A stretch of DNA of 64,000 bases from Candidatus Thorarchaeota archaeon (GTDB lineage: Archaea > Asgardarchaeota > Thorarchaeia > Thorarchaeales > Thorarchaeaceae): contig SHMX01000001.1 in the NCBI GenBank assembly GCA_008080745.1, positions 159,359-223,358 on the forward strand, in the 5' to 3' direction. Under the pieces are notes generated by a model. The model was not told where the DNA came from, searched no databases, and saw only the letters and a program-made list of their open reading frames with translations. The translations under genes were made by a program, and so were the position numbers. The number at the start of each line of letters is the position of its first letter. Within the stretch, counting starts at the first letter, position 1. Positions 3,035 to 64,000 of this stretch are shown one piece after another.

Positions 3035-3787
3035 TCAGAGATTATAGAAAGAAATTGAATTCTGCGTAGTAATTTCTCCAGCCTTTTCAACAGATATTCC
3101 TTTAATATCCGCAAGTGAGCGCGCACCGTAGATGATATTTGCTGGTTCGTTTCTGCCCTCAATTGGCGAAAGATAGGGACCATCCGATTCGAGTAGAATC
3201 TGATTGATGGATAAAATCTCTGCGGCTTTTACTCGATTTCGATAGCTTCCAAAATTTGCAGGTAGAGTAACTACCCAACCATTTTCAGCAATTCGTTGAG
3301 TAACATCAGGAGGGCCATCATAGCAATGCATCAAAACTTTTGACATACTATGAGTTTCAAGAATATCAGCTGCTCTTCCTTCTGCCTTTCTAGCATGAAC
3401 AACAATAGGTAGATCAAGCTCTTTTGCAATGGAGATGAACATCTCAAAAAGAGGTTCCTGAGCCTTTCTTTTTTTGGAATCTTTGACCCAGTGATAATCC
3501 AACCCAGCCTCACCAATAGCCACGATTTCATTGGGATATTTTTTGATAAGACTGATGATTTTTTCCGCTTCGTCTTGCTTCAGGAGTGAAGGTTGACAAC
3601 CAGCGGTATGATACACATAACCTTCGTGTTTTTCGACTATTCCAAGTGTACGTCGAAAAGAGCCGGGATTTATCGATGACGAAACCATACCAACAAGTCC
3701 TGTATCTTTTGCTCGTTGAATGACCTGTTCTCGATCATTTTTGTAGTGTTTCATGTCGATGTGAGTATGTGCATCAAATAACTTCAA
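3035..3787 (-). CDS. TatD-family metal-dependent hydrolase (DNase)
   Basis: 250 aa; N-terminal FDAHTHID, internal AIGEAGLDYHW, PIVVHARKA and LESDGPYL metal-ligand motifs typical of TatD. Confidence 0.85.
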   Translation of the reverse strand: MKLFDAHTHIDMKHYKNDREQVIQRAKDTGLVGMVSSSINPGSFRRTLGIVEKHEGYVYHTAGCQPSLLKQDEAEKIISLIKKYPNEIVAIGEAGLDYHWVKDSKKRKAQEPLFEMFISIAKELDLPIVVHARKAEGRAADILETHSMSKVLMHCYDGPPDVTQRIAENGWVVTLPANFGSYRNRVKAAEILSINQILLESDGPYLSPIEGRNEPANIIYGARSLADIKGISVEKAGEITTQNSISFYNL

Positions 3788-3853
3788 GATGATAACCTCG
3801 TTGTATTGATTCCGAACTAGATTTCCTTTTAATCTTCGAGGAATGAATATGTT

Positions 3854-4765
3854 GTGGGATTAGCAATGAGTGACCTACAAGATAGACTTCGTGATAAGAC
3901 CCTTCAGATTACCGCGCTTCAACAAAAAGTGGGTTCCTTGGAGGCACAGCTAAGTGGAGCTCATAGAAGAGCACACCAATTAAACGAAACAGTTCAATCA
4001 CTGGAACGTACGATAGCTGAAAAAGATGGTGAAATACAAATGCTCCGTTCCGAACTTCAGAAGACTAAGGGAGCATTAGACACTGTGGGGGCAGAGATTC
4101 GTGGAATGAAAGCAGAACAAGTTGCAAGTATGTCAAAGCAACGTCCTGGTGGTGCAGAATTCTCTACAAAAGAGAAACTAGAAACAGCTGAACGAAAACT
4201 AAGCGCTACCAAGGACGATATAAAATTACTAAGTGAAGCAGCAACAGATGTACTTAATCAAGAACCTGGGGCAATAGAAACACTTCGAGATGCAGTACTT
4301 GCTGTGGGAGACCCAAAATTCAAAATTCTGAACATAGTACTGAATAGTCGTTCGGTAAGGATTGACGAACTTGCTTCGACCTTGGTGATTGATGTGTCGG
4401 AAGCACTTCAAATTGTGGATGAACTCCAATCCGCTGGAGAGATAGAACTTCGTGAGGGTACTACTGTGATACCAGGAAAGAAATATCGCGAAGTAAAAAT
4501 ACCAGCTGAGGAATGGAAGACTTGGGAGCCATCAGATATCTTTGACAATTTAGAAGATATTGTTGAAAAGGCCGAAGGAAAGGAAAATATCGTAAAAGCT
4601 CTTGAAACTGCGGTAGACATTCTAGAAACAAAAATGGCACGTGGTGGAGCACTAATATTTCAGATGAGAAGAACAGCAGGGGACTGGAAGAAGAAAGAAG
4701 GAGATCGAGAGGAGCTAAAATATACAATTCGTGAATGGAAAGGACGAGCAGAAGCGCTCGCTTAA
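3854..4765 (+). CDS. coiled-coil protein with internal winged-helix-like segment
   Basis: 303 aa; N-terminal ~100 aa strongly heptad-like (LQDRLRDKTLQITALQQKVGSLEAQL...), middle segment ILNIVLNSRSVRIDELASTLVIDVSEALQIVDELQSAGEIEL resembles a winged helix. Confidence 0.5.
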   Translation: MGLAMSDLQDRLRDKTLQITALQQKVGSLEAQLSGAHRRAHQLNETVQSLERTIAEKDGEIQMLRSELQKTKGALDTVGAEIRGMKAEQVASMSKQRPGGAEFSTKEKLETAERKLSATKDDIKLLSEAATDVLNQEPGAIETLRDAVLAVGDPKFKILNIVLNSRSVRIDELASTLVIDVSEALQIVDELQSAGEIELREGTTVIPGKKYREVKIPAEEWKTWEPSDIFDNLEDIVEKAEGKENIVKALETAVDILETKMARGGALIFQMRRTAGDWKKKEGDREELKYTIREWKGRAEALA

Positions 4766-4772
4766 GATTTTG

Positions 4773-5195
4773 TTACTCTTCCCCTTTCTTTATTGCTTCT
4801 CTCACATAGGAACCAAAGTCTGATGTTTCTCCATCTCGATGGACACGGATTTTGGGTCCTTCGCCCTTTATCTGTCGTTCAATGTACCGAATATCTAACT
4901 GCTTGATTGTTTGCCGAAATCCTCGATATACAATAAGATAAAGAAGAATCTCTTCTATCCGTTTAGCTACATCAGGTTCAGTCTTAGCAAGGCCCTCAAG
5001 ATATTGAACTGCATCAGGAGCTGTGAAACGTTTGAGAAGCCGATCGCGTTCATTCTGAACTTTTTCGGCGTGTTCTCGCTTCTCTTTAGCTTCTTTCTCT
5101 TTAGCCATCATTTTGGCCATTTTCTTTCTACGAATCAGAGCCAATTCTGAATCATCATCAGTCAAGCTAGGAACCTCGTAATCAAACCCCTGCAA
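4773..5195 (-). CDS. PDCD5/TFAR19-like dsDNA-binding protein
   Basis: 140 aa; Lys/Glu-rich N-terminus followed by a helical core (AVQYLEGLAKTEPDVAKRIEEILLYL...IKQLDIRYIERQIKG) matching the archaeal PDCD5 pattern. Confidence 0.5.
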   Translation of the reverse strand: MQGFDYEVPSLTDDDSELALIRRKKMAKMMAKEKEAKEKREHAEKVQNERDRLLKRFTAPDAVQYLEGLAKTEPDVAKRIEEILLYLIVYRGFRQTIKQLDIRYIERQIKGEGPKIRVHRDGETSDFGSYVREAIKKGEE

Positions 5196-5297
5196 ATACT
5201 TGTTAAGCTTACCGATACAGCGAGAATTGGTTTTTTAGGGCTTGGTGTTATTGAGTGAATAGATATACTGTTAGGTTATCTTCAAGGGGTTGAAAAA

Positions 5298-6227
5298 ATG
5301 TCGGAAGATTGTGAGTATCTTAGTGCTTCGTCAACGGGACTATCCTGTAAACTTCGAAATCAGGTGATATCTCATGCTGAGGCGAAAGCGAAGTGTAAAC
5401 GACCAGACCTATCAGTAATATGTGTGGATGCGTATACCTCTTTATCTAGAGGGCAAGAAGCAATAACACAGAAGAGCACAGATGCTTTTCCATGGTTGGT
5501 AGACTCTGCTACTCATTTCGAGAACCTGAAAGAAACAGATAATGCGATTATGGCAATTTCAAAGGCAATTAGATATGCCACCAAAATGGGTTTACCAGAC
5601 AAGGCCTATGAATTTTTTGTCTATGCGAGAATGATGTTAGAAAACGCACTTGAAGAAGGAGACCCAACAGTTTTACAACCAGGGCCAAAAATAACATTGA
5701 TCGAAGCAGGAAATGGGCTGATTGAGGCAGTCAAGCAACAACTTACCTCTGCTGCAGTATCAGAGGTTCAGGCGGAATTAAAAGCTAGCCTGCTAGAAGG
5801 GGTCAGTCTCAAAAAGGCCGAGGTGGATGATACCAAAGACTTGGTCATCTATCATGGTCGTGCGCTCTATGCAAAGAAATTGAAGGAATACAAAGAGGGC
5901 GCAGAGAACTATATCAAATCAGGAATTGTTCAGAATGCCGTGACCTTTGCATGTATGGCTGCACTGGCAGAGCTTATGCTCGGCAGACCAAAAGAGGGGA
6001 TAGCTTATCTTACAAAGACAGCAAACCAATCAGAACAAAAAGAGAAATGGCACAAAAGCAAGATGTTCAAGTGGACCAAACTGATCTTCAAAGCATTTGT
6101 AACACGAGAAGAAGAACCCATGAACGATGCTCAGAAATTATTCTTCCAACTAGCATGGGCTTTCAAAGATGACAAGCAATTCGCCCAGAGAGTGATGGAT
6201 TCCGTTCAGCGTAGAGTTAGTCAGTAA
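5298..6227 (+). CDS. hypothetical protein (predominantly helical)
   Basis: 309-aa ORF with no recognisable motifs; its 3' end overlaps the stop region of the convergent gene by 11 nt. Confidence 0.45.
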   Translation: MSEDCEYLSASSTGLSCKLRNQVISHAEAKAKCKRPDLSVICVDAYTSLSRGQEAITQKSTDAFPWLVDSATHFENLKETDNAIMAISKAIRYATKMGLPDKAYEFFVYARMMLENALEEGDPTVLQPGPKITLIEAGNGLIEAVKQQLTSAAVSEVQAELKASLLEGVSLKKAEVDDTKDLVIYHGRALYAKKLKEYKEGAENYIKSGIVQNAVTFACMAALAELMLGRPKEGIAYLTKTANQSEQKEKWHKSKMFKWTKLIFKAFVTREEEPMNDAQKLFFQLAWAFKDDKQFAQRVMDSVQRRVSQ

Positions 6228-7548
6228 TTCTCAGATGTGAGATAAAGAAACCACTTGTGTTATGTATATGGGGGAAGTACCGCTGTATGTGATCCTTGCA
6301 TTTGAAAGATGTATAGCCCATACTTCCAATATGCTGATGTTTGACTAATTCCAGAAATGAATATCGATCCATGACAGAATCAATCTGTGACTCCCCCTCA
6401 TGAGGTAGAATGGAGCAGGTAGCATAAACAATCTCAGTGCCCGGACGATTTTGATAAGCTTCAATAATACTATCGAGAATTTTATTCTGAACTGCCATAA
6501 GAGCCATTAGAGAATTTTTGTTCAACTGCCATTTGAATGAGGGATAACTCCAAATTATGCCTGTAGAACTACATGGTGCATCTATGAGAATCTTATCTGC
6601 ATTCTCAATAGGCACTGATGAAGCATCTGCAAGAAGCCACTTAACAGAGGAATAACCCAGTATATTTGCCCTTTTCTTTGCAATTTCAATTCTTTCAGGA
6701 GAGCTTTCACTTGCATATATTGTTCCAATCGAGTGGGTTAACTCTGAGATTAATTGCGTTTTCATCCCTGGGGCAGCACAGGCATCCCAGATTATCTCTC
6801 CAGGTTTGGGATCTAGAGCAAGGACCGAAAGCATACTTGCTTTATCTTGAACAAGAACATTGCCTTCTGTGAATAGCTTTGAACGAACGAGATTATCAAT
6901 GCCATTCTCGACCAAAAAAAGGTCTGAAACATCAGAATCACGAGTTAGATGGACATCTAGACTTCCAATCATTTCAATCATCGATTCCGTAGAGGAAACA
7001 AGCTTGTTTGGTCTAATGAAATAACTCCGTGGACCATTGTTAGCCCGCATCAATTGAATTACTTCCTCTTCGGGGAGATTATCTAGTAGAGTTTCTACGA
7101 GAAATGTGGGATGCGCGAATTTTATACTTAAACGATTCACAATAGGCAGAGAGAGGATAGCTTTATCCAAATGGCTATCGAGAATTTTTCGTACTGTTGA
7201 TACCATTTCAGGAATCTTATACAAGTAACTCTCTAACAATGTCCTTATTGAAGTCTTTAGCCACCTACCCTCGTATATTACAAGCCGTAACAGATTTCGC
7301 TCATAAACAGACATTTGTTTTGCAGATTTAGCCCCATAGCGCGAGATTAGCCAATCAATGGTATTGAGATACTTTATTGTTTCAAAAGTCAAAGATTCAA
7401 CTAGCCCACGATATTGATGAAGTTCTTGATAAGAGTCATACTTCTCTCGCAACAAGGATTTTAGAGATTGTGATGATTTGTCATATTCGACTAGTATTCT
7501 TATCGCATGCTCTCGAGCAATCTGCTCGGAATCTTCCTTTTCTGCCAT
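6217..7548 (-). CDS. RsmB/NOP2/Sun-family RNA cytosine-C5 methyltransferase
   Basis: 443 aa; NusB-like N-terminal region, SAM-binding ILDACAAPGMKT-like segment (IIWDACAAPGMKTQ) and catalytic DAPCSSTG plus YATCSI motifs. Confidence 0.8.
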   Translation of the reverse strand: MAEKEDSEQIAREHAIRILVEYDKSSQSLKSLLREKYDSYQELHQYRGLVESLTFETIKYLNTIDWLISRYGAKSAKQMSVYERNLLRLVIYEGRWLKTSIRTLLESYLYKIPEMVSTVRKILDSHLDKAILSLPIVNRLSIKFAHPTFLVETLLDNLPEEEVIQLMRANNGPRSYFIRPNKLVSSTESMIEMIGSLDVHLTRDSDVSDLFLVENGIDNLVRSKLFTEGNVLVQDKASMLSVLALDPKPGEIIWDACAAPGMKTQLISELTHSIGTIYASESSPERIEIAKKRANILGYSSVKWLLADASSVPIENADKILIDAPCSSTGIIWSYPSFKWQLNKNSLMALMAVQNKILDSIIEAYQNRPGTEIVYATCSILPHEGESQIDSVMDRYSFLELVKHQHIGSMGYTSFKCKDHIQRYFPHIHNTSGFFISHLRITD

Positions 7549-7560
7549 TTTAGGTCACAA

Positions 7561-9300
7561 TCATGTGAAATCTACTTCTGGACCAATGTGAACGTACTTC
7601 ATTCTGGTGAGCATCTCTGGGAAGTACTTACCACCAATTATTCCCGAGTCCTTATAGCCTCCAAGATGGGGCATATATGGGTCAAAATATAGATGATCTT
7701 GACCAAGAGTGACACCCGCTGCTTTTATTTTCTTAACCCACTTGTTTCGAATTTTTACATCGTCTGTAAAAATAGAGGAACGTAAGCCAAATCGAGATGC
7801 ATTCGCTATCGAAATTGCTTCGTCAACACTGCTTACTTTCATGACTGGTAGTGCAGGAGCGAAAACCTCCTCCTTCATTATTCGCATGTCCTGATTGACA
7901 TTTGTTAGTACGGTAGGTTTGTAGAACATTCCTGCAGGGTCCTTTTCGTCAAGATAGTTACACCGAAATCCACCTGTTTCGATCTTTGCACCTTTCGCAA
8001 CGGCATCTTCCATTTGATCGATTAAGATGTATAACGCAGTGAGTCCCACGGGAGGAAGACCCACCTTTGGATCAGAAGGACGACCCACTTGCAATTTCTC
8101 TGCTTCTTCAATAACTAAATCCAATAAATCATCATGGAGAGTATCCTGAACAAGTAGCCGCTTAATTGCCATGCACGCCTGACCACTTCCCAGATATCTT
8201 CCCTTCACAATCATCTTTGCAGCAAATTCAAGGTCAACATCCGAACCCCAGACCAGACTAGCATCACTACCAGCGAGCTCTGGAGCCATCTGTATTCGTT
8301 TGCTGACAGCCTCAGACCATAACATCAATCCTGTATCACTATCACCATACCAGACAATAGCACCAACTTGTGAATCGGACATGAACCGATTCATCATACG
8401 TTTTCCACCACCAGTGAGTAGTTGAAGCATTCCCGGTGGCAAATCCATGTCCAAGAATTTCTTCATAAAGATGCGCCCAAGTAGAATGGTACTCAGGGGA
8501 ACTTTACTAGGTGGCTTGAGAATGGTTGAATTCCCGGCAAGTATCGAAGAAGTGATGCTTAGAATTCCAAGTGCCAAAGGAGAGTTGTATGGAGTGAATA
8601 GACATGATACTCCATAAGGTTCGCGGAACCGATAGTTCTTTCCTCCATCGCGTCCTGGGTCTTCATGGATATCCAGAGCAGTTCCCCATAGTTCAAAGGT
8701 TTCTCGTTCAAGATATTCGGTAAACATCTTCCAAGTCCATTCAAAGGTCTTGATAGGAACACCCTCTTTTACGGAGATTTCTCTAACTTTTTCAAATTCG
8801 TCTTTCACAGCCAAGCCAGCTTCATACAATGCATCAATGCGTTCATCTAAAGTCACACCCATATCGGGTCTTCTGAATGGGTTGAACAGAGCCTCGTGAT
8901 CACGTGCTCCAGCTGCAATAGCCTCCGAAATATCAGACTCGCGAGAAAGAGCAACTTTTGCATAGATTATGTCATCCAGCTCATCATTACTATATTTAGG
9001 AATACCATGATGCTTACGATAATCCCGTAGATATCGCATCTCAGCTGTCTTCTTTGGAATTAGTCCTGGCGTACGTGAGAAAACGAAACGTTGACTTCTT
9101 GAAGCTGTACGCATCTGTAATGCAATTGCAAGACCAGGTTCCGTAATCACCTTGTCCATATCTGGAAAGAAGGTATACTTTCCAGTGTCTATTTCTTTTC
9201 CATCTACGAGTATAGGATGTGTATCCATAGCAAAAGCCCCATTCTGAGTGTGAAATTGTTGCCAATCGGCGTGTCTTATAGTTTTTCGGGAGAGTACCAA
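7561..9300 (-). CDS. aldehyde dehydrogenase family protein with N-terminal extension
   Basis: 579 aa; catalytic-Cys context GSGQACMAIKR and APELAGSD (ELGG-like) motif of the ALDH superfamily. Confidence 0.7.
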   Translation of the reverse strand: MVLSRKTIRHADWQQFHTQNGAFAMDTHPILVDGKEIDTGKYTFFPDMDKVITEPGLAIALQMRTASRSQRFVFSRTPGLIPKKTAEMRYLRDYRKHHGIPKYSNDELDDIIYAKVALSRESDISEAIAAGARDHEALFNPFRRPDMGVTLDERIDALYEAGLAVKDEFEKVREISVKEGVPIKTFEWTWKMFTEYLERETFELWGTALDIHEDPGRDGGKNYRFREPYGVSCLFTPYNSPLALGILSITSSILAGNSTILKPPSKVPLSTILLGRIFMKKFLDMDLPPGMLQLLTGGGKRMMNRFMSDSQVGAIVWYGDSDTGLMLWSEAVSKRIQMAPELAGSDASLVWGSDVDLEFAAKMIVKGRYLGSGQACMAIKRLLVQDTLHDDLLDLVIEEAEKLQVGRPSDPKVGLPPVGLTALYILIDQMEDAVAKGAKIETGGFRCNYLDEKDPAGMFYKPTVLTNVNQDMRIMKEEVFAPALPVMKVSSVDEAISIANASRFGLRSSIFTDDVKIRNKWVKKIKAAGVTLGQDHLYFDPYMPHLGGYKDSGIIGGKYFPEMLTRMKYVHIGPEVDFT

Positions 9301-43595: not shown

Positions 43596-46500
43596 TTATT
43601 TCGTTGGACGAATTATTTGGGGACCAACTATATCATGGAAGAGCTCTAGATAGGAAGAATCACTAGATAGCAAACTAAAGGGCTCATCAGAGTCTGTACC
43701 TAAGAGTATAATTTTATTGTCAGCAACCGCCATTAATGGAACATCTTGGGAATAGATAATCCTCCAACCCGGCAGTTCTTCAATACTGGGTTCACCATCT
43801 TCGGGTAAGGGAATGATCAATATCTTTCTTCGAGGTTTGGAAATCTTGGAAATCTTCTTTAGGTCTAAATCACCAGGATTTGGACTTGCAATCACTATTG
43901 ATTCTTCAGCTTGATTAGCCAGAGCTAGTATCTGTGAATAAATTGCCTCTTTTCCTTTGATATACCAAGTCTTACCAGATTGTGATAGAATTTCTCGACT
44001 GGCTTTTTGGATAACCTCAAGACTCTCAATCGATTTCTCTGTTACTGATTTCACACTCTCGAATGATGAATCTAAATTCTTCTGAAAATCAGTGTATTGT
44101 TTCTCCAGCTTGGTCACCCACCTTCTGATTGATTTATCCATCTCGGTGCTCATAGCTGTCAATACTTCGGACCTAGTTTGTTTCAGTTCTGAAGTTGTTT
44201 CTGTCATGACTGTGTTAGTCGTGGCTGTCGTTTCATTAATCTCAATATTCTTTGTAGCCACGTCAGCACGGATAGATTCCATTAATTCATAGGATTTTGT
44301 ACTCACATCAGTTTTTAATTCAACACCAAGGGACTCAAATTTCCTCGAAGCTTGCTGATTGGCAACAAGAACATTTTGACGAGTTTTATCAAGTATGTCA
44401 TCACAATTGGATCGCAGTTTCTTAGCAGTTCTCTCAAGGAGAGTAGTTATTTCATCATGGGCTGATTCCAACGAGAGGGAATAATCATGAAGTGAAGTAT
44501 TCAGTTCCGAGTTAGCTTCGGAATGAACCGCAGCTACTCCCTTCTTTATCGATTTTGTAGCTTCTTCAACACCAACTTTTGCACTCTCTGGCATAGCATC
44601 AATGGACTCCTTAACTCGCTCTAGAGCTGTTGCAACCATTGATTCAAAGTCCGTAGCTTGTGAACGAAGCTTCGATTCAGTTTTATCAAATAGACCAATA
44701 CTCATAGCTTCTAGTTTTTCAATAGTTTCATCACCCTTCGATAGTATATTCTCGGTTGCCTGTTCAGAAGTTTTGGAAAGTTGTTGTTGGACCAAGGTAA
44801 GCTCATTATCCAATTTACTTCCGAGAGCGGTAAGCGATGACTCTACATTAGAAACTGCAGATTCAACCCAGACAGAGGCAGCGTCGAAGGCTAAAGCAAC
44901 TTCGTTCTTTCTGGTTTCTAAAGTCTTCATGATATCCTCCTTAGACTTGCTTCTTGCTTTCACAGCTTTTGATTCCGCTTCCGTGATTGAACTTTGATAG
45001 TTTTCAAGACGTTCAGAGGATACCCTCGCTCTTGCACTGTATAGTGCATCCAGTTTCTTACTAGTTTCAGCTAGTGTTCTCTGTTTGGCATCACTTTGAG
45101 ATGAAAGGAATGACTCTGCCTTTGTTTTGATAGCACCAGTTGATTTGGTAATGAAAGTCTTGGCATCATCACGTGCACCCCCAATCCTTTCAACCACAGT
45201 ATCCCTACCACTACTGATTGAAGCATTGAACTCTCGAGATACCTGAGTAAGATTTTCTCCAAGCTGCCGAATTGTGCCACTGCTCATCTCTCTTAATGAC
45301 TCAGCAGTTGTGATCATTGATTGTTCAAGATTATCTATAGCGGTGTTAACCATTGAGGTAATTGAAGTACGCTTCTCAGAGCTCACCGTCTGAAGTGTTT
45401 CTCGAATCTCCTCCGCATGTTCAGCTACTTCATCAACTCGACTCTGTAATTGTATTGTGTACTCCTCTTGTATTTTGAGTGAATCGGATTCTAGGGAGGA
45501 AATCTCTGTTCTAATAGCATTCTTAAATTCGGTATGAGCTGAACCAATAAGATCAGTTGCTTCCAAGGTCTGACTAGAAATTAAGGCATTGAAAGACGAC
45601 TCTGTGCTCTGGGTTAGAGTGATGAATTGACGAGTTATCTCTTCAAGTTTGACATGGAATTCCTCCTGGATCCCTTTCGCCATTCGCTCTATTCGTCCCG
45701 TCTGATCTTCAATGGTGGAATCAATTTCTTTTTGAATCCGAGTAGCATGGCTAGTTAAGGTTGACACACTCTGAGCGAGTCTTTCATTCAGAGTTGTCCC
45801 AAGTTCTTGGTAGAGTGTCTTCGTGACATCTACCTGTGTCTTTGTAGTAGTTGCAAAATCGTTTATGATATCTGTAAATGTACTCTCAAGAGAGGACTCA
45901 AACTCTGTAGACATAAGTTTTGCATCAGAAAGAATTGCTTCACTTTGACTTGCTGATTTAGATATAATGCTGTCAAATGCAGTCTTTAGTCGACTATTCA
46001 TATTAGTAACAAGAGAATTAAATTCTGACGATTCTGTATCAAGAACTTGAGAGATTTCATCTACAGCACCAGTTAGTTTCTTCTCAATTTCTTCTCCGGC
46101 AATTGAAGCCCAATCATCAATATCAGCATTGAGTGTTTCACCATCTTCCTGTATTCTAGCATCATCAGCTTCAAGTTGGCCTTGTAGTAGGGAGAGTATG
46201 GAATTCCGCACCTCGCTGACATGAACATCGAAATCTGAATTAATCGATTTTGCAAAAGATTTCAAGCGGGCAAATTCATCACTCAGAAATCCACTCGCCT
46301 TGTCAAAATAGGTATTCACCGAGGTTCGAATAACTTCATGATAAGAATCGTCAGTGTCAGACACCTGTTCAAGTTGAGCGGTGACAGACTGATTTGCAAC
46401 CTCCATAAATCCTGTCACTTCTTTCTTCCAAGCTGAAATGTCACTTAGGACTGAAATAGTAGCGTCAATTGCAGTCTGAATTTCATGCTGAACGTGTTCT

Positions 46501-47489
46501 GCTTGTTCACGAGGAATCTCTTTAGCACTTTCAAGCATGCCATCAAGAGACTCCTTCGCACCGAGGTAGGATTCACCTAGAGTACTATCAAACTCACTAA
46601 GACTGGTTTTCAAATCTGAGATGAGTTGGTTTAGCTGTTTTACGCTTTTCTTTGAGATATCTGTCGATTTTGCAAGTACTACCTTTACAATTTCTTTTGA
46701 TGCATCATCAAGAGCTCCCTCTGATTCTGATAGTGCTTCGTTTATTGATGACCTAATTTGCTCTACTAATTCAGCTATCTTGTTGCTTACACCATCTATC
46801 GAATCTGAAACGGAGGTGGTCTCATCATTAAGCCAATCATCGAATTCGGTGGCAATCTCATCGGTGGATTCGATTAATTGTTTTTGGCTGGCATCTAATG
46901 ACTTCTGCAATTCTGACAATAAAACTCCTAGGCGATTGTCCAATCCAGTATCGATTTCTGTAAGTACAGTTTCTAGCTGTTCAACCAAAGAATTGAGAAC
47001 ATTAGTTACAGTTCCAGATATCTCTTCAATCTGGTCACGAACAGTAGTAACCATCTCGTTTTCATATTCGTCTAAAGCATTGGTTACTTTGAGATCTCGT
47101 TCTTTATGAGACTCGAGTAAATTCTGGGCAAGTGAGCTTGTTGTTTTTTCTTGCTCACCAATGACATTTTCAGAAACCTCTTTGATTGAGGAAAATTCGT
47201 CAAGCATCTCTTGGAGAGATGATACCACCATCGTATCAAGGGGTACAGCCCGATAAACCGGAATTACACCCTCTAGCTCTACCACATAACCTTTCTCAAT
47301 CAATTTCTTCAGTGTTGATTTTACTTTTGAGGTCTTTTCACCAATTAATAGAGCTACTCCCTCAGCAGTAATATTACCACTCGCAAGTATGGGATAAAGC
47401 ACAGAAGCTTCAAGTTTGGTGAGACCAAGATTGGATTTCAATACAGGAACAGTTTCAGTCATCAAATTGCCACTCACTACTAATACCAC
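43596..47489 (-). CDS. giant (1297-aa) protein: N-terminal TrmB-like winged helix, about 1000-aa Ser/Thr/Glu-rich helical (coiled-coil-like) region, C-terminal globular domain
   Basis: N-terminus LTKLEASVLYPILASGNITAEGVALLIGEKTSKVKSTLKKLIEKGYV is helix-turn-helix-like; long helical low-complexity core; C-terminal about 130 aa (WYIKGKEAIYSQILALANQAEESIVIA...) is not low complexity. Confidence 0.6.
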   Translation of the reverse strand: MVLVVSGNLMTETVPVLKSNLGLTKLEASVLYPILASGNITAEGVALLIGEKTSKVKSTLKKLIEKGYVVELEGVIPVYRAVPLDTMVVSSLQEMLDEFSSIKEVSENVIGEQEKTTSSLAQNLLESHKERDLKVTNALDEYENEMVTTVRDQIEEISGTVTNVLNSLVEQLETVLTEIDTGLDNRLGVLLSELQKSLDASQKQLIESTDEIATEFDDWLNDETTSVSDSIDGVSNKIAELVEQIRSSINEALSESEGALDDASKEIVKVVLAKSTDISKKSVKQLNQLISDLKTSLSEFDSTLGESYLGAKESLDGMLESAKEIPREQAEHVQHEIQTAIDATISVLSDISAWKKEVTGFMEVANQSVTAQLEQVSDTDDSYHEVIRTSVNTYFDKASGFLSDEFARLKSFAKSINSDFDVHVSEVRNSILSLLQGQLEADDARIQEDGETLNADIDDWASIAGEEIEKKLTGAVDEISQVLDTESSEFNSLVTNMNSRLKTAFDSIISKSASQSEAILSDAKLMSTEFESSLESTFTDIINDFATTTKTQVDVTKTLYQELGTTLNERLAQSVSTLTSHATRIQKEIDSTIEDQTGRIERMAKGIQEEFHVKLEEITRQFITLTQSTESSFNALISSQTLEATDLIGSAHTEFKNAIRTEISSLESDSLKIQEEYTIQLQSRVDEVAEHAEEIRETLQTVSSEKRTSITSMVNTAIDNLEQSMITTAESLREMSSGTIRQLGENLTQVSREFNASISSGRDTVVERIGGARDDAKTFITKSTGAIKTKAESFLSSQSDAKQRTLAETSKKLDALYSARARVSSERLENYQSSITEAESKAVKARSKSKEDIMKTLETRKNEVALAFDAASVWVESAVSNVESSLTALGSKLDNELTLVQQQLSKTSEQATENILSKGDETIEKLEAMSIGLFDKTESKLRSQATDFESMVATALERVKESIDAMPESAKVGVEEATKSIKKGVAAVHSEANSELNTSLHDYSLSLESAHDEITTLLERTAKKLRSNCDDILDKTRQNVLVANQQASRKFESLGVELKTDVSTKSYELMESIRADVATKNIEINETTATTNTVMTETTSELKQTRSEVLTAMSTEMDKSIRRWVTKLEKQYTDFQKNLDSSFESVKSVTEKSIESLEVIQKASREILSQSGKTWYIKGKEAIYSQILALANQAEESIVIASPNPGDLDLKKISKISKPRRKILIIPLPEDGEPSIEELPGWRIIYSQDVPLMAVADNKIILLGTDSDEPFSLLSSDSSYLELFHDIVGPQIIRPTK

Positions 47490-53968: not shown

Positions 53969-54631
53969 ATGAGTAAAAAGGAGTGGTTACTAGAGATATT
54001 GGAGAAAACAAAAAACGATACACAATTTGACGATCCACCAAAGTATATCATAGAGATATGCAATGAAATTGGTCTAAGAGGGTTAACGGATAATAGTATC
54101 GAATTATCACGGGAGCAGCGCATGGATGTAGCTAGATACACAGTGGCACAAGGAGTGCAAATAGAAACTGTAGTTGAAGGACTTACCTGGAAAGATTTTG
54201 AGGGGTTTATTGCATCCATCCTAGTAGAGAACACATACAAGTGTACGGAGAGCCTTCGCAGGATAGGTAATGAAACAGCAAAAGGAATGGAGATTGATGT
54301 TGTAGGAGTTAAGGGACGAACCATTCTGTCAATCGATGCAAAGATGTGGGGAATGAGAACAGGGAAGGCATCCGCTTTGAGAAAAGCTGCTGAAAAGCAA
54401 TTAGAAAGATCGTGTGAATTAGCCTCACAGTTATCTCTTATTCACAACCGAATACAAACACTACCTAGGGGACAATACACCATATTTCCCGTACTCACAA
54501 CATGGCTTGTGGAAGATATAATGATTCATCAAGGAGTTCCTATTGTCCCAATATTTCAAATCAACTCTTTCATATTGAACTTTGAAAATTATCAACATCT
54601 GATTCAATCATTTCAAGGAGAATTAAAATAA
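53969..54631 (+). CDS. PD-(D/E)xK nuclease-fold protein (Mrr-like restriction endonuclease catalytic domain)
   Basis: LTWKDFEGFIASIL...GMEIDVVGVKGRTILSIDAKMW follows the FE...(D/E)xD...K pattern of Mrr/Hjc-type nucleases. Confidence 0.45.
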   Translation: MSKKEWLLEILEKTKNDTQFDDPPKYIIEICNEIGLRGLTDNSIELSREQRMDVARYTVAQGVQIETVVEGLTWKDFEGFIASILVENTYKCTESLRRIGNETAKGMEIDVVGVKGRTILSIDAKMWGMRTGKASALRKAAEKQLERSCELASQLSLIHNRIQTLPRGQYTIFPVLTTWLVEDIMIHQGVPIVPIFQINSFILNFENYQHLIQSFQGELK

Positions 54632-54664: not shown

Positions 54665-55660
54665 TTAATCAAAATCTTTAATCTCACCAGTTACGGTATC
54701 AATCATTCCTAGCCGGATGACCTCGATCTTGCTCTCATCGTAAGCAGGATATGTAGAGAGATTTTTCTTAATTGCTTCTGCTAATGAAAGAAGTCTCTTT
54801 TCAGGTGATTCAGGAGGTTCATCTTCAAAGCTCGATGCCTCTTGATTCAGAGTTTCAATAACTGGACGTAAATAGGTTCCATGAACATCTGACGGATTCA
54901 GAGATGCCTTGCCAGCACCACAGTGTTGTCCTTCTTCCTCAATCTTACCGTGTGGAATGAAAACAATATATTTCTTTGAACCTCCTGTCGCTTGCCAAGT
55001 TTCTAAGAATGCATTAAATTGGGCAGTTTCATCATCATCACCAGTATAGGCGGGAACATGACCACCTAAGGTTTGGATTGCATATGGTAATCCAGCATAT
55101 GTTAGCGGTGGGTGGACTCTTGAATCAGAACACACCAATATCATTACATCATCATTGACTGTAGTAGGTATTGTTGTTGCTCGTGATATAAGATGTTGTT
55201 CCACGGCCTGATTTCTATGGTATGAATGAGAGTGTGGAGAAACCTCTCCACTATTGTAGTTTATCTTGAGAGCTACAATAGGAATACCCTTAGTATCAGG
55301 ATTCTCAGAGACATTCTTCAATGATGCTTCAATTACGGCATCATCTTCGTCGTGTTCAAAGGTTATCACGATTCCATTCTTCTCGGGAAAGTGCTCATTA
55401 TATGCAGCCGGACCACTGAAAAAGATAGGCGTCTTATCACTCTCAGGTATTGATCGACCAGGCACTCGTGTACCTGAAAAAGCGTCACCCTGTTTGAGAT
55501 CAAAGAGCTGAAGGTCCTGGGCACCTCTCTTAATCGATGAGATTAGAAGAAAGCGTGGCTGTTGACCATTTGCTGCAATGTTCATTTTTTCTCGCAAAAT
55601 TGGATTGTTTTTACGTTCAACCCTAGTTGCTTTTGATATCTCGATAAGTTCGTTTATCAT
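54665..55660 (-). CDS. internally duplicated protein with beta-carbonic-anhydrase-like CSDSR motif in the second repeat (tentative)
   Basis: 331 aa; second half has ILVCSDSRVHP and IVFIPHGK...QHCG; first half has the degenerate equivalents LLISSIKRG and IVITFEHDED; spacing of the His/Cys pair deviates from canonical HxxCG. Confidence 0.3.
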   Translation of the reverse strand: MINELIEISKATRVERKNNPILREKMNIAANGQQPRFLLISSIKRGAQDLQLFDLKQGDAFSGTRVPGRSIPESDKTPIFFSGPAAYNEHFPEKNGIVITFEHDEDDAVIEASLKNVSENPDTKGIPIVALKINYNSGEVSPHSHSYHRNQAVEQHLISRATTIPTTVNDDVMILVCSDSRVHPPLTYAGLPYAIQTLGGHVPAYTGDDDETAQFNAFLETWQATGGSKKYIVFIPHGKIEEEGQHCGAGKASLNPSDVHGTYLRPVIETLNQEASSFEDEPPESPEKRLLSLAEAIKKNLSTYPAYDESKIEVIRLGMIDTVTGEIKDFD

Positions 55661-57268: not shown

Positions 57269-58003
57269 CTATAGTGTCTTGAGGATTTCTTCTACCTCAG
57301 AATTCTCAAGAATTTTGAATTTCTCTTCCTCTGTTGTGACTCGTCCAATCTCTACAGATTTAGCCTTCTCAACAGGATCAATTTCTGCTTTCTCACCAGT
57401 TGCTTTCAGCAGACCTTCAAGGGCAAGTTTCATTGCACCTTCGACATTGATTGTTGGATCGTACTTTTCCTTGAAGAAATCACGAACAACATCAGCATCT
57501 TTTCCGATAGCTGTGGCTTTCCAACCCCAGTATGAACCCGAGGGATCAGTAGTAAAGAGTTGGGGGCCTTCAAAATCTACACCACCCACAAGTAGAGATA
57601 CACCAAAGGGACGTACTCCACCATACTGTGTGTGAGCTTGTTTAGTATCACAGATGCTGACAACAAGTGACTGAACAGAAATCGCCTCGTCAAAGTTGAG
57701 CCGATACATCTGAGCCTGTCCCCGAGCCTCACCAATGAGTTTTCTTGCATCTGCATGCAGACCTGCAATGGCAGTTCCAACATGATCATCTATGAGTAAG
57801 ACCTTCTTCAGAGTGTCCAAGTCAACAAGAGCGTGTGGAGAACGTTTCTCACCAGCCAATACAACCCCATCTACACCTTTGACACCGACAGCAAGAGGTC
57901 CATAGCGAACAGCCTCCATGGCGTATTCGACCTGATACAGACGGCCTTCTGGCGAGAACATTGTTATGGCTCGGTCATAATTCGTGCTCTGTGCGGAAAA
58001 CAT
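57269..58003 (-). CDS. psmA: 20S proteasome alpha subunit
   Basis: 244 aa; N-terminal YDRAITMFSPEGRLYQVEYAMEAV is the alpha-subunit signature. Confidence 0.9.
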   Translation of the reverse strand: MFSAQSTNYDRAITMFSPEGRLYQVEYAMEAVRYGPLAVGVKGVDGVVLAGEKRSPHALVDLDTLKKVLLIDDHVGTAIAGLHADARKLIGEARGQAQMYRLNFDEAISVQSLVVSICDTKQAHTQYGGVRPFGVSLLVGGVDFEGPQLFTTDPSGSYWGWKATAIGKDADVVRDFFKEKYDPTINVEGAMKLALEGLLKATGEKAEIDPVEKAKSVEIGRVTTEEEKFKILENSEVEEILKTL

Positions 58004-58114: not shown

Positions 58115-58810
58115 CTATCGCCACTCAAGATTGATAGTAATAGTAGGGGGTATCAAATCCAAGATTTCAGTGATTTCTGATTTTTGTGGTTCCCTAAGAT
58201 GTATTTTCTCTTCCGCACGAACGCCCGTCGATGCTATGTAATTCTGAACGGTATACTTACCTGAAAAATCAAGTTTCTGTAATTCTTCTGCAATACGAAC
58301 AACATCTTTGGGTTCCATAAGTATACCAGTGTAAGTCGTTCGAGGCCATAATTCTACTGAGGATTGAAGAATCATTTTTAGGCTCTTGACCACTTTGTCC
58401 CACGGATTCTGTTTTGTTCTACTTATGGACTTATAGGATTCAGGAGAGGTTTTGATATCAAACCATACTGAATCCAGATAGGGTAGGCACTTTTCCAGAA
58501 TATTAGGAACCGATCCTTGCGTATTGAGGTTAATATGACCATCAGTTGATTCTCTGAGAGAAGCTAAAAGATCTGGTAATTCATTCTGTAGTGTGGGCTC
58601 ACCGCCAGTTATGCAATAGCCATCAACAAAATGTCCCGACACTCTCGAAATAATCTCAAGAATACTCACTTCAGAGCCAGAGTCATGGGATATCAAATCT
58701 GCATTCTGACAATAGGGACAATTAAAGTTGCATCCACTAGTAAAAATCACTGAAACAGGTATACCCGGTACATCAACTAGACTGACATCAATAATAGAAC
58801 CAATCCGCAT
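58115..58810 (-). CDS. radical SAM protein (NrdG/PflA-like small activase family)
   Basis: 231 aa; VIFTSGCNFNCPYCQN (C-x3-C-x2-C) close to the N-terminus, GGEP-like ITGGEPTLQ. Confidence 0.6.
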   Translation of the reverse strand: MRIGSIIDVSLVDVPGIPVSVIFTSGCNFNCPYCQNADLISHDSGSEVSILEIISRVSGHFVDGYCITGGEPTLQNELPDLLASLRESTDGHINLNTQGSVPNILEKCLPYLDSVWFDIKTSPESYKSISRTKQNPWDKVVKSLKMILQSSVELWPRTTYTGILMEPKDVVRIAEELQKLDFSGKYTVQNYIASTGVRAEEKIHLREPQKSEITEILDLIPPTITINLEWR

Positions 58811-58878
58811 TGAGATTATACCTCACATTAGATAGCCAAACCATTGGTTATATCACCAACGGTATGGCTTTTGTATTT

Positions 58879-60612
58879 CTAAGACTCGCTAAAACAAGAC
58901 TGCAAGTCTTTGATTATTTTTTCTTTTGCTATTCCAATATATTCGGAGTTTGCCTCAATAGTCAAATCGTTAATTATGCCATTCCGCCGGTCATAATGTA
59001 ATGTGACTTTAGTGTCATCCTCGCCTTTTGAAGGAAGAATGTAATGAACACGGACGTCCTCTGAATCGTCTTGGAACTCCTCATCAATCGATATTATTTC
59101 TTTGTTTGCTAGATACTCCTCGATGGCAGCAACGTCACATTTTTGATTCAGGGTCACCCGTACTAGATGACTTTTCTCGACCTTTGATTCAAGCCAGTCC
59201 ATTCCCTTCTTTAGGACAATAACTATTGCGGTCCAAAGAGTAACAGCTAAGGTGAAGAATAAAATTGGATTGCTTTCTGGAAACAGATGGAAATCTGTTG
59301 AATACTCTCCAGTGATTGCTAAGACAATGTCGAAAGCAATGGTACCAGAAAGAATCAATTCAATGACATTGAGAACATTACCTGTTCTTTCGCTTGCACG
59401 AATGACTTCGCTTGTGCTTTGGGTATTGTCACGAAGTGCACTATAGACCCTTCGCATCTGTTGTTCAATTTGTGTAGAAAGCAAGGTCTGAAGACCTTCG
59501 ACTTCACTAGAAAGGCTCTGGAGATCAATGTCGGTGTCACTAATACGGTTCATGAGACGATCAAAGGTATTTTGAAAGTTTAGTACAGACACAGCTTCTT
59601 CATCGACACCCTCTCGTTCTGAAAGCCACTTTTCTTTGAGTAGAGCAAAACCTCTCTTTAGATAGCTGCCTATCGATTGAATTATGGTGAAGTTTGCTGA
59701 GGCTTCGGTCAATATATTTTGTGCTCGAGTAATGACCGAATGATCACCACTAGCAGTCTTTTCAATAAGTATTCTTACTTGAGCTAACTCATCCCAGAGC
59801 AATGACATCCTGTGGTAGAGGCCATCAACAAACATTTCAGCACTTCGTACTAGTGCATAAAAGGATACAAGAGATTCATATTTGCTCCAGTTTTCAGAAA
59901 CAAGAATGAGGCCAGCATCTCCAACAAGAAGCAGACTTCCATCGTTTAGTCGATGTGTGATGATTAAATTATCTAGTAGTTGCTCCAGTTCGTTCTGATA
60001 TTCTTCTCCATCCATATACTGTGTTATATCATCAAAATTTGGAGCCATTGAACTAGCAAGCATGCCAACAAATTTGTATCGACTTCTCGATTCACCTTTG
60101 TAAATACAATCCATTAGACGTCGTTGATGATGAGTGAGTAGTGTTTCCATCATTAAAGAGCTATCGTATATTAGATCAACCACTACTCTGGATATTTTGT
60201 CCAAGGAAACCCCATTGATATTTGTTTCTTCTCCACAAGTTTCGAATATCTCGGCGCCATAGACAACATGACCATCATGGCTGATGTACATTCCAACGGT
60301 TTCTTCCTGTTCTATAGATGAGTCATCGTCAGGGTCTTGTATCTTAATCTCACTTGCAATATATTCAGAATTAGCAGCATCGATTACTCGGACAAAGTTG
60401 ATTTCAGACTCGCTGGTAAAAGTAGTACTCTCAGGAAACTTATCAACCAACATAGTGACAAATTCGCCATGCACGTGACGAGTTGACATCAATTTGTTTC
60501 CAATGTCTTCTAGTATATTTCGATCACAGGGTATGTACTCACTCAGCAGAATTCTTACATCCTTTAGTATCATAGATTCTGTTAGGTCATCTCGAATGTT
60601 GCCTCCACTCAT
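58879..60612 (-). CDS. membrane-anchored protein, unknown function (C-terminal two-helix hairpin reminiscent of CorA-like topology)
   Basis: 577 aa; large soluble N-terminal region, hydrophobic segments NVIELILSGTIAFDIVLAI and ILFFTLAVTLWTAIVIVL near the C-terminus, then about 95-aa tail. Confidence 0.45.
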   Translation of the reverse strand: MSGGNIRDDLTESMILKDVRILLSEYIPCDRNILEDIGNKLMSTRHVHGEFVTMLVDKFPESTTFTSESEINFVRVIDAANSEYIASEIKIQDPDDDSSIEQEETVGMYISHDGHVVYGAEIFETCGEETNINGVSLDKISRVVVDLIYDSSLMMETLLTHHQRRLMDCIYKGESRSRYKFVGMLASSMAPNFDDITQYMDGEEYQNELEQLLDNLIITHRLNDGSLLLVGDAGLILVSENWSKYESLVSFYALVRSAEMFVDGLYHRMSLLWDELAQVRILIEKTASGDHSVITRAQNILTEASANFTIIQSIGSYLKRGFALLKEKWLSEREGVDEEAVSVLNFQNTFDRLMNRISDTDIDLQSLSSEVEGLQTLLSTQIEQQMRRVYSALRDNTQSTSEVIRASERTGNVLNVIELILSGTIAFDIVLAITGEYSTDFHLFPESNPILFFTLAVTLWTAIVIVLKKGMDWLESKVEKSHLVRVTLNQKCDVAAIEEYLANKEIISIDEEFQDDSEDVRVHYILPSKGEDDTKVTLHYDRRNGIINDLTIEANSEYIGIAKEKIIKDLQSCFSES

Positions 60613-61184
60613 TCTTTTTCACCTCTAGCTAAATCACCAATACCAAGATATTTTGGGAGATAAGATCTGGACTTGTACGGAATGTCCTCAAGGTCATCAA
60701 TAGAAACTCTTTCGCGAATTCCACATGCAGTACAAAAGAGATAGAACTGACGATTTTGAATTTCTACAAATCTAAGGTGTTCTGAGTTGCAATAAAGTAA
60801 CTGGTTAACTGTTTTCTTAATCTCTTCTGAGGCTGATGAGAGAAAACTTGCCCCCCGTGGAGTAACTCGATAAGCGGTTATGTATCCATAATTACCAGTA
60901 CTCAAACGAAGTATAGAAATTAACCCGAGTCTCAAGAGGTCTTCAAGATCGTCTTTCGCCTCACGACTTACATTTAACCATTGTCGGGTACCATCCAGCA
61001 TTTGTACACTCCAGGGAGCATAGTCATATGTTTCAAAAAGACCAGTGATGATACCCTTGTAAATAAGGGTGGCAAGTGGAAGTTCTTTTATCCATTTAGG
61101 ATCCTTTTCTTTCTCTTCTTGAAGCGTATACTTGTGGATGATATGCAATAACTTGATCATATCCTCAGTTATTTCGTCCTGCAT
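60609..61184 (-). CDS. hypothetical protein with possible winged helix and Cys pair
   Basis: 191 aa; 4-nt overlap with the downstream membrane-protein gene. Confidence 0.45.
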   Translation of the reverse strand: MQDEITEDMIKLLHIIHKYTLQEEKEKDPKWIKELPLATLIYKGIITGLFETYDYAPWSVQMLDGTRQWLNVSREAKDDLEDLLRLGLISILRLSTGNYGYITAYRVTPRGASFLSSASEEIKKTVNQLLYCNSEHLRFVEIQNRQFYLFCTACGIRERVSIDDLEDIPYKSRSYLPKYLGIGDLARGEKE

Positions 61185-61314: not shown

Positions 61315-61587
61315 ATGGAGTCATTGATAATATCACGTGATGAGATTCTTAAAAGCACACTTTTTCATATTCAGGTCAAAAGATGTCAATTCATTGATAA
61401 TTTTCCTGAAGTCGTGACCGAAGTGATTCACGAATCTATGGTTGAAAAAGGAATCTCAGACTACGCAAAATTAAAGAGAAAGCTCTACAGGATAGATACC
61501 AATTTCTTCACGATCAACAAGGATAAGATCAAGAAGAAAGACTTCTATGAAAGCCTATATTCAAGAATACAGGCCAGAGCTAGCTGA
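61315..61587 (+). CDS. hypothetical small protein
   Basis: 90-aa ORF with GGGGA upstream of the ATG; no motif. Confidence 0.3.
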   Translation: MESLIISRDEILKSTLFHIQVKRCQFIDNFPEVVTEVIHESMVEKGISDYAKLKRKLYRIDTNFFTINKDKIKKKDFYESLYSRIQARAS

Positions 61588-63529: not shown

Positions 63530-64000
63530 TCAGCTTTTCTCGATTTTCCTCCAAAATCGTGTCGCACTTCTCTGACGACCATATCCAATAAGATCATCCA
63601 TTAATACAATCATTCGGTTCAACCAAGGCATATGTCGAACCATCCAAAGAACCATTTTGTGAAGAACGTTGTTTGGTTTGTTGTAAGGGCAGCTACGAAT
63701 GCAGTTTGAGCATTCACCACCATTTTGTACCCAGAAATCGTAACAGCTCTCAACGTCCACATACCATTTCTTTACTCCTGGATTGTTAGATTTTGACGTT
63801 CCTTTCCAACTCTGTTCTTTATCATAGGGGATAGACTGTGAAGGGCAATCTTTTGCGCATCTTTTACAGGTTTTACAAAACCGGATAACAGAATCACAAA
63901 AACCCTTGTCGGGTTTATCGGGAATAAGAGGCATATCAGTTAGAATTTTAGCAAGTCTGACCCTTGGACCATATTCCTTTGTTATAAGTAAACCATGACG
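63530..64000 (-). CDS. reductive dehalogenase / epoxyqueuosine reductase-like 4Fe-4S protein, C-terminal part (5' end lies beyond the window)
   Basis: Reading frame is open to the window edge; ...ITKEYGPRVRLAKILTDMPLIPDKPDKGFCDSVIRFCKTCKRCAKDCP...CSNCIRSCPY carries the two ferredoxin-type motifs typical of RdhA/QueG C-termini. Confidence 0.55.
   Translation of the reverse strand, partial: RHGLLITKEYGPRVRLAKILTDMPLIPDKPDKGFCDSVIRFCKTCKRCAKDCPSQSIPYDKEQSWKGTSKSNNPGVKKWYVDVESCYDFWVQNGGECSNCIRSCPYNKPNNVLHKMVLWMVRHMPWLNRMIVLMDDLIGYGRQRSATRFWRKIEKS

Follow-up and report, generated by a model that had tools for sequence, protein, structure and literature searches.

The 64,000-nucleotide (nt) stretch analysed here, referred to as the window, lies on contig SHMX01000001.1 of Candidatus Thorarchaeota archaeon (GCA_008080745.1, positions 159,359 to 223,358). 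Three consecutive genes on its minus strand encode a 191-amino acid (aa) protein of the MJ1567 family (60609..61184), a 577-aa membrane protein of the MJ1566 family (58879..60612) and a 231-aa radical SAM enzyme (58115..58810). The original prediction, made from the sequence of this locus, proposed that the radical SAM enzyme and the membrane protein may form an undescribed maturation or modification system. Our results show that the three genes are not one system and that the real unit consists of the first two genes. The pair is probably a divergent CorA-like module with a winged-helix partner, and the radical SAM gene probably codes for a separate activase of the NrdG2 type.

The tight linkage of the three genes was predicted with exact coordinates. 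The ATG of the 577-aa gene shares 4 nt (ATGA, 60609..60612, minus strand) with the TGA stop codon of the 191-aa gene. A 68-nt spacer containing a 14-bp hairpin (58811..58878, minus strand) separates the stop codon of the 577-aa gene from the ATG of the radical SAM gene. Next downstream is the archaeal proteasome alpha subunit gene (psmA, 57269..58003), identified in Pfam and NCBIfam scans. Many conserved homologues were found for each of the 191-, 577- and 231-aa proteins and the three open reading frames (ORFs) are therefore real genes. The 577-aa protein is 100% identical to BAJATHORv1_10205 from the Candidatus Thorarchaeota metagenome-assembled genome (MAG) Baja_Thor, described in PMC6737245.

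The family membership of the two proteins was taken from precomputed Pfam assignments in a public collection, which were used as they stand there and not rescored. The 191-aa protein belongs to PF27231 (MJ1567) and the 577-aa protein to PF27230 (MJ1566_N); the assignments cover the identical proteins P0001 and P0040 and all homologues. Both families are named after uncharacterised proteins of Methanocaldococcus jannaschii and carry no function, and no mention of MJ1566, MJ1567, PF27230 or PF27231 was found in the literature searched. To compare gene neighbourhoods, loci were gathered by exact-protein look-ups and a genome scan, and were annotated with the window proteins as queries. Wherever a locus included upstream DNA, the MJ1567 gene was located immediately upstream of the MJ1566 gene and in the same orientation, and the two usually overlap by 1-8 nt. 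The loci with the adjacent pair span the Thor, Hermod, Heimdall and Hel groups, a Bathyarchaeia-labelled contig and Acidobacteriota, and the identical 4-nt overlap is present in L004, L005, L009, L014, L016-L019 and L102. The Guaymas Basin contig L002 carries two tandem MJ1567-MJ1566 pairs (3064..7761). As judged from the sequence, this arrangement indicates translational coupling and makes 60609..61184 and 58879..60612 a module of two genes.

In many organisms the two proteins are joined in one chain. A profile search of 1.84 billion representatives recovered 796 family members at E <= 1e-3. Many of these are 790-1200 aa long with a match beginning only at residue 200-500, and their sequences are MJ1567-MJ1566 fusions. 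Single-chain fusions account for 194 of the 305 members examined and have a median length of 861 aa. Eukaryotic fusions were found in Chromosphaera perkinsii, Physarum, Planoprotostelium fungivorum, Guillardia theta, Baffinella, Prasinoderma, Mallomonas and Ostreococcus tauri, and among oomycetes in Phytophthora, Pythium, Aphanomyces, Achlya, Lagenidium and Globisporangium. Several of the eukaryotic fusions are placed on megabase-scale contigs, which argues against contamination. Bacterial fusions are present in Wallbacteria and on two contigs where the neighbouring genes, MreC and PBP2 for example, are bacterial. The eukaryotic proteins align over their full length with both archaeal proteins, with 30-40% identity in the MJ1567 part and 26-31% in the MJ1566 part. 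Fusion of this kind is a classic argument that the two window genes are linked physically and functionally.

Additional domains were seen in some of the fused proteins. P0294, an MMETSP transcript product of 1146 aa, is a fusion with a C-terminal cyclic-nucleotide-binding domain, which would fit a gated channel. For the Ostreococcus cluster (P0352, XP_022840886.1, 1299 aa) the representative P0205 was scanned, and a SprT-like domain was found at its N-terminus. PF27687 lies between the MJ1567 and MJ1566 parts in some marine sequences.

The architecture of MJ1566 was analysed with an AlphaFold2 (AF2) model of mean predicted local distance difference test (pLDDT) score 77.7. The protein comprises a cytosolic alpha/beta region (~15-240), three long helices (242-406), a helical hairpin and a C-terminal alpha/beta domain (482-571). 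The original prediction had placed a two-helix membrane hairpin at the C-terminus. The two helices were found (~413-436 and 449-475; 411-436 and 449-477 in the AF2 model), but their terminal position did not hold, as the alpha/beta domain of ~100 aa comes after them. Two hydropathy peaks occur at ~425 and ~458. The acidic loop between the helices has a net charge of -3, and the basic flank behind the second helix one of +2. By the positive-inside rule, MJ1566 is predicted to have two transmembrane helices with both termini in the cytoplasm.

These features resemble those of the CorA/Mrs2/ZntB metal ion transporter (MIT) superfamily (PF01544), in which an N-terminal cytosolic alpha/beta domain is followed by stalk helices that run into a two-helix hairpin with cytoplasmic ends. 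Both the cytosolic alpha/beta domain and the long stalk helices of the CorA fold are present in MJ1566. In the Foldseek search ranks 1-9 were all CorA, ZntB or MRS2, with a best E of 6.7e-4 over 300-367 aligned columns, although the TM-scores (template modelling scores) were low. CorA-family structures were at the top in both structure-search methods used, and the matches, of 174-194 aligned residues, span the alpha/beta domain as well as the helices. A possible CorA-type domain had been raised for checking in the original prediction, and the check was positive both at the level of the fold and through a natural CorA hybrid. This hybrid, P0172, is an Acidobacteriota cluster representative that carries the IMG name 'Mg2+ and Co2+ transporter CorA'. 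Query columns 18-393 of the MJ1566 profile align with it (probability 99.9, E 1.3e-36), and it also matches Pfam CorA with 74.6 bits (profile positions 140-292), with the motif GFYGMNF. An MJ1567 gene lies upstream of the P0172 gene and shares 4 nt with it. Thus, the pore that the MJ1566_N module and MJ1567 serve in one bacterial lineage is a true CorA pore. The Asgard and eukaryotic form has the cytosolic module and the partner in common with P0172 and differs from it in the hairpin.

Conservation was examined across 214 full-length members from three domains of life. About 20 polar residues of the cytosolic region are nearly invariant, among them E25, N32, Q102, E104, D138, R142, D146, D150, S152, Q163, R178, K180, E208, Q211, R356 and D359. 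The C-terminal domain has a single strongly conserved residue, D541. The first helix of the membrane hairpin follows the family consensus L-[AS]-G-[ST]-[LI]-A-F-[DE]-I...T-G-x-[WY], in which G423 is found in 92% of the members, A426 in 88%, F427 in 96% and G435 in 92%. An acidic residue occupies position 428 in 78% of the members, and in ~70% D and R are found at 431 and 432. An alternative is that MJ1566 is a structural or membrane-remodelling protein, whose coiled-coil bundle and hairpin would act as an anchor, tether or shaper and whose likeness to CorA would reflect no more than a shared helical scaffold. We consider this unlikely. The CorA-family matches cover the alpha/beta domain and not the helices alone, and the existence of a hybrid with a real CorA pore speaks for a shared ancestry of the cytosolic module. 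The polar and acidic positions conserved inside the first hairpin helix weigh against a purely structural role, and the nearly invariant cytosolic residues suggest binding of a ligand or ion instead of scaffolding.

There are also clear differences between MJ1566 and CorA, and several observations weigh against the CorA-like interpretation. No G-x-N (or GMN) motif was found in residues 405-480 of MJ1566, and the 577-aa protein gave no match to Pfam CorA (PF01544, E <= 0.01) or to any transporter model. The model has a pLDDT <50 for residues 399-414, where the stalk joins the first hairpin helix, and ~52-76 in the hairpin. In hhalign comparisons the homology with P0172 was not carried through the membrane part, and a forced global alignment reached 51% probability. 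As the homology was not demonstrable in the membrane segment, the pore could have been swapped and not diverged. The first MJ1566 copy of the L002 tandem (517 aa) has lost the hairpin in frame and kept the C-terminal domain; the cytosolic part can thus exist without the pore. Compared to CorA, the cytosolic region of MJ1566 is larger by ~175 N-terminal residues and an extra domain of ~100 aa follows the second membrane helix. A further difference is the winged-helix/zinc-ribbon protein, which is an obligate partner of MJ1566 or fused to it. We know of no description of such a partner as a feature of CorA. Since both the GMN motif and the PF01544 match are missing, the pair was not filed as CorA, and MJ1566 is read as a diverged relative within the CorA/Mrs2/ZntB architectural class that has a winged-helix protein as its obligate partner. 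Pfam and NCBIfam scans of the 577-aa and 191-aa proteins yielded a single match, to MsyB/MysB, which was below threshold, lay in an acidic stretch of the 577-aa protein and was dismissed.

The partner, MJ1567, is a soluble protein in which helices at the N-terminus precede a winged-helix domain and the C-terminus is a degenerate zinc ribbon. It gave no Pfam match at the thresholds used. Residues ~30-115 match the fold of MarR/PadR-type winged-helix proteins. Unlike those proteins, MJ1567 has the zinc-ribbon tail and is fused to a membrane protein in most members. With such a fold, MJ1567 could be a DNA- or RNA-binding transcription factor which MJ1566 sequesters and releases as a membrane sensor, and the pair would then be a membrane-tethered regulator without a channel. 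This explanation is improbable, because in most members, including those of eukaryotes, MJ1567 is covalently fused to the membrane protein and could not leave the membrane. Moreover, MJ1567 accompanies a canonical CorA pore in Acidobacteriota, and winged helices often act as protein-protein modules. Repeats resembling operators were not seen, although no search was aimed at them.

For the divergent CorA-like module with its winged-helix partner, the following mode of action is proposed. By analogy with CorA, MJ1566 would oligomerise into a channel-like assembly, and the first hairpin helix, with its conserved polar and acidic positions, would line the pore. The cytosolic domains may act as sensors of a ligand or ion that gate the membrane segment; the ~20 nearly invariant polar residues of the cytosolic region support such sensing. 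MJ1567 would dock on MJ1566_N as a regulatory or sensing subunit, because it is fused to the N-terminus of MJ1566_N in eukaryotes and bacteria and adjoins it even where the pore is a canonical CorA pore. As GMN is absent, the substrate is probably not handled as in the classical Mg2+ channel CorA and the classical Mg2+ selectivity is not expected.

The radical SAM protein was assigned independently of the pair. Its resemblance to activases of glycyl-radical enzymes, noted in the original prediction, was confirmed: the cluster cysteines C27, C31 and C34 lie within GCNFNCPYCQN (CX3CX2C), and the SAM-binding ITGGEPT (GGEPT) is invariant across six orthologues. The protein scored 142.4 bits with the NCBIfam equivalog TIGR02495 (NrdG2, class III ribonucleotide reductase activase), for which the curated cut-off is 131.15 bits, and 64.9 bits with Pfam Radical_SAM. 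With PflA-type models it scored far below their own cut-offs (69.9 bits for PflA). To examine the neighbourhood of related genes, metagenome contigs were scanned with an alignment of the six orthologues, which gave 80 loci. In 32 of 61 loci of distant relatives (29-40% identity) a gene for a protein of ~700 aa is directly beside the radical SAM gene. Four of these neighbours were sampled and all four are NrdD, with ~640 bits on PF13597, and three of them have an ATP-cone. In 14 further loci the neighbour encodes ~166 aa, and the one member scanned was of the dCMP-deaminase type. Both types of neighbour belong to nucleotide metabolism.

The score with TIGR02495, the motifs and the NrdD genes beside the relatives together make an NrdG2-type activase the best reading of the radical SAM protein. 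The CX3CX2C and GGEPT motifs are common to the window protein and the NrdG2 activases (TIGR02495), which are related to PflA and other activases of glycyl-radical enzymes. Unlike the NrdD-adjacent relatives, the window gene lies between the MJ1566 gene and the proteasome alpha gene. Two points speak against the assignment. The family is near the threshold, as two Thor orthologues scored 136.1 and 130.3 bits, the latter, in L001, just short of the NrdG2 cut-off; and no NrdD was found in the 64-kb window among its six ORFs of >=550 aa. None of these six ORFs codes for a glycyl-radical enzyme, in agreement with the earlier remark that none is adjacent. The gene would thus code for a class III ribonucleotide reductase activase (NrdG2) whose substrate NrdD is presumably encoded elsewhere in the genome. 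The literature searched held nothing relevant on nrdD in Thorarchaeota. By its profile score and motifs the radical SAM gene appears to be an ordinary member of a known family, with a routine annotation, and falls in the housekeeping class that the original prediction had named as an outcome contrary to its proposal.

To address whether the radical SAM gene belongs with the pair, the gene order was compared across loci. The gene is directly after the 577-aa gene in six loci, namely the window, L001, L004, L005, L006 and L011, and the short contig L032, where the end of MJ1566 is followed by the radical SAM gene and then psmA, is a seventh case. In those six loci the whole block of PAS histidine kinase, pair, radical SAM gene, psmA and RimK is kept. 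Since the block is conserved whole from the PAS kinase to RimK, the adjacency of the pair and the radical SAM gene adds no information. The pair is present without the radical SAM gene in L002, L003, L007-L010, L012, L013, L015-L019 and L102. Of these, L007-L010 are Thor loci outside the block, L012 and L013 are from Hermod, L015-L018 are Heimdall-type and L019 is from Hel. Thor paralogue and bacterial loci are among those with the pair and no NrdG2 radical SAM gene. Conversely, orthologues of the radical SAM gene (51-58% identity) were found on ~17 Thor-like metagenome contigs from which the pair is absent. On these contigs the PAS kinase gene is followed, after ~440 nt, by the radical SAM gene and then by psmA and RimK. 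By this gene order the radical SAM gene belongs to the Thorarchaeota PAS-kinase/psmA/RimK block, in which the pair is found only in some lineages.

The idea that the three genes constitute one undescribed system, with the membrane protein or the small protein as the target that the radical SAM enzyme modifies or matures, is therefore very hard to sustain. It has in its favour the common strand, the short spacers, an order kept in six loci and L032, and the lack of NrdD among the larger window ORFs. It is contradicted by co-conservation failing in both directions, that is by the pair occurring without NrdG2 in at least 13 loci and by the ~17 contigs on which the PAS kinase directly precedes the radical SAM gene, and by the conservation of the full block from PAS kinase to RimK in the supporting loci. 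Lack of co-conservation was the other outcome named in the original prediction as contrary to its proposal. More distant relatives of the enzyme adjoin NrdD. A glycyl-radical motif, for which the original prediction had suggested a search, is also missing from MJ1566: R-[V/I/T]-x-G-[Y/F/W] does not occur in the 577-aa protein, and the looser expression R-x(1-2)-G-[Y/F/W] gave no match. A radical SAM gene near the Heimdall pairs was rejected as support for the link, as it belongs to a different family, TIGR04038 (TatD-associated), and is 4 kb upstream.

A strong hairpin also separates the 577-aa gene from the radical SAM gene. It has 14 bp, is positioned directly after the stop codon of the 577-aa gene and has a folding energy (dG) of -26.7 kcal/mol (z -4.65). 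In the closest relative, L004 (6197..6265), the hairpin is retained with compensatory changes; it is absent at the orthologous Thor loci L001, L006 and L011. A Shine-Dalgarno-like motif, GTGAGGT, precedes the ATG of the radical SAM gene. The hairpin is likely to be a boundary between the pair and the radical SAM gene, and would fit a transcript or processing boundary.

The distribution of the MJ1567-MJ1566 module bears on its history. The module is split in Asgard archaea and fused in Amoebozoa, Ichthyosporea, oomycetes, cryptophytes, chrysophytes and green algae. A rough neighbour-joining tree was built from the cytosolic region, with the CorA hybrid as root. Every eukaryotic protein and every bacterial fusion fell into a single clade (100 of 100 resamplings), apart from the Thor, Hermod, Heimdall and Loki/Hel sequences, and two of the bacterial fusions were nested among eukaryotes. 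The tree is compatible with an origin in Asgard archaea, then fusion and a later transfer to bacteria. A eukaryotic gene that came from bacteria would also agree with it, and a tree made in this way is too rough to tell the two apart. A tentative proposal, which we hold with less confidence than the CorA-like reading itself, is that the pair represents an ancient CorA-derived module, a hitherto unrecognised protein of archaeal origin in the last eukaryotic common ancestor. Its altered pore, without GMN and with acidic residues in the first transmembrane helix, would on this reading conduct or sense something other than Mg2+ under the control of the winged-helix protein.

The analysis also accounts for a propagated misannotation. 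P0175 of Globisporangium splendens (KAF1331198.1) has WDR35 propellers and TPR repeats (residues 3-766) joined to an MJ1567-MJ1566 protein. The names 'WD repeat-containing protein 35' (WDR35/IFT121) given in IMG and NCBI to archaeal, bacterial and oomycete members probably stem from a merged model of this kind. A ciliary (intraflagellar transport, IFT) link suggested by these names was rejected, as a single merged gene model from an oomycete is the source of the name and Ostreococcus has members of the family. To our knowledge, Ostreococcus is without flagella. A family known in Pfam by locus-tag names only is now tied to the CorA channel superfamily, and always comes with a winged-helix/zinc-ribbon partner that is fused to it in many eukaryotic lineages. 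This provides a concrete, testable hypothesis for a conserved protein of protists and algae, and adds a candidate to the membrane proteins common to Asgard archaea and eukaryotes.

Several further features were recorded in the neighbourhood of the pair. In the Heimdall-type loci L015-L018 a conserved same-strand run of genes lies ~5 kb upstream of the pair. It includes the TIGR04038 radical SAM gene in three of the four loci and continues with a TPR protein, a 188-aa protein without known function and two TldD/PmbA metallopeptidase paralogues. In the window a 90-aa ORF (61315..61587, plus strand) lies between the PAS kinase and MJ1567 genes, on the opposite strand; it has conserved counterparts in L004, L005 and L014 and no match to any family. 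Two Thorarchaeota-conserved proteins of 331 aa (54665..55660, minus strand) and 220 aa (53969..54631, plus strand) have no Pfam or NCBIfam match and are encoded in the conserved synteny block that also holds psmA and RimK.

Elsewhere in the window, a gene on the minus strand (43596..47489, 1297 aa) encodes a protein with a TrmB winged helix at its N-terminus and, after it, a very long apolipoprotein-like coiled coil. The match of this protein to a ZorA-like model is weak (E 1.3e-4) and far under the cut-off of that model. A reductive dehalogenase in the Baja_Thor MAG is discussed in PMC6737245. The 134-aa ORF at 63530..63934 (minus strand) covers only the C-terminal part of a reductive dehalogenase (TIGR02486, 101 bits, profile positions 191-314 of 314) and may be a truncated or split gene or have a wrongly placed start.

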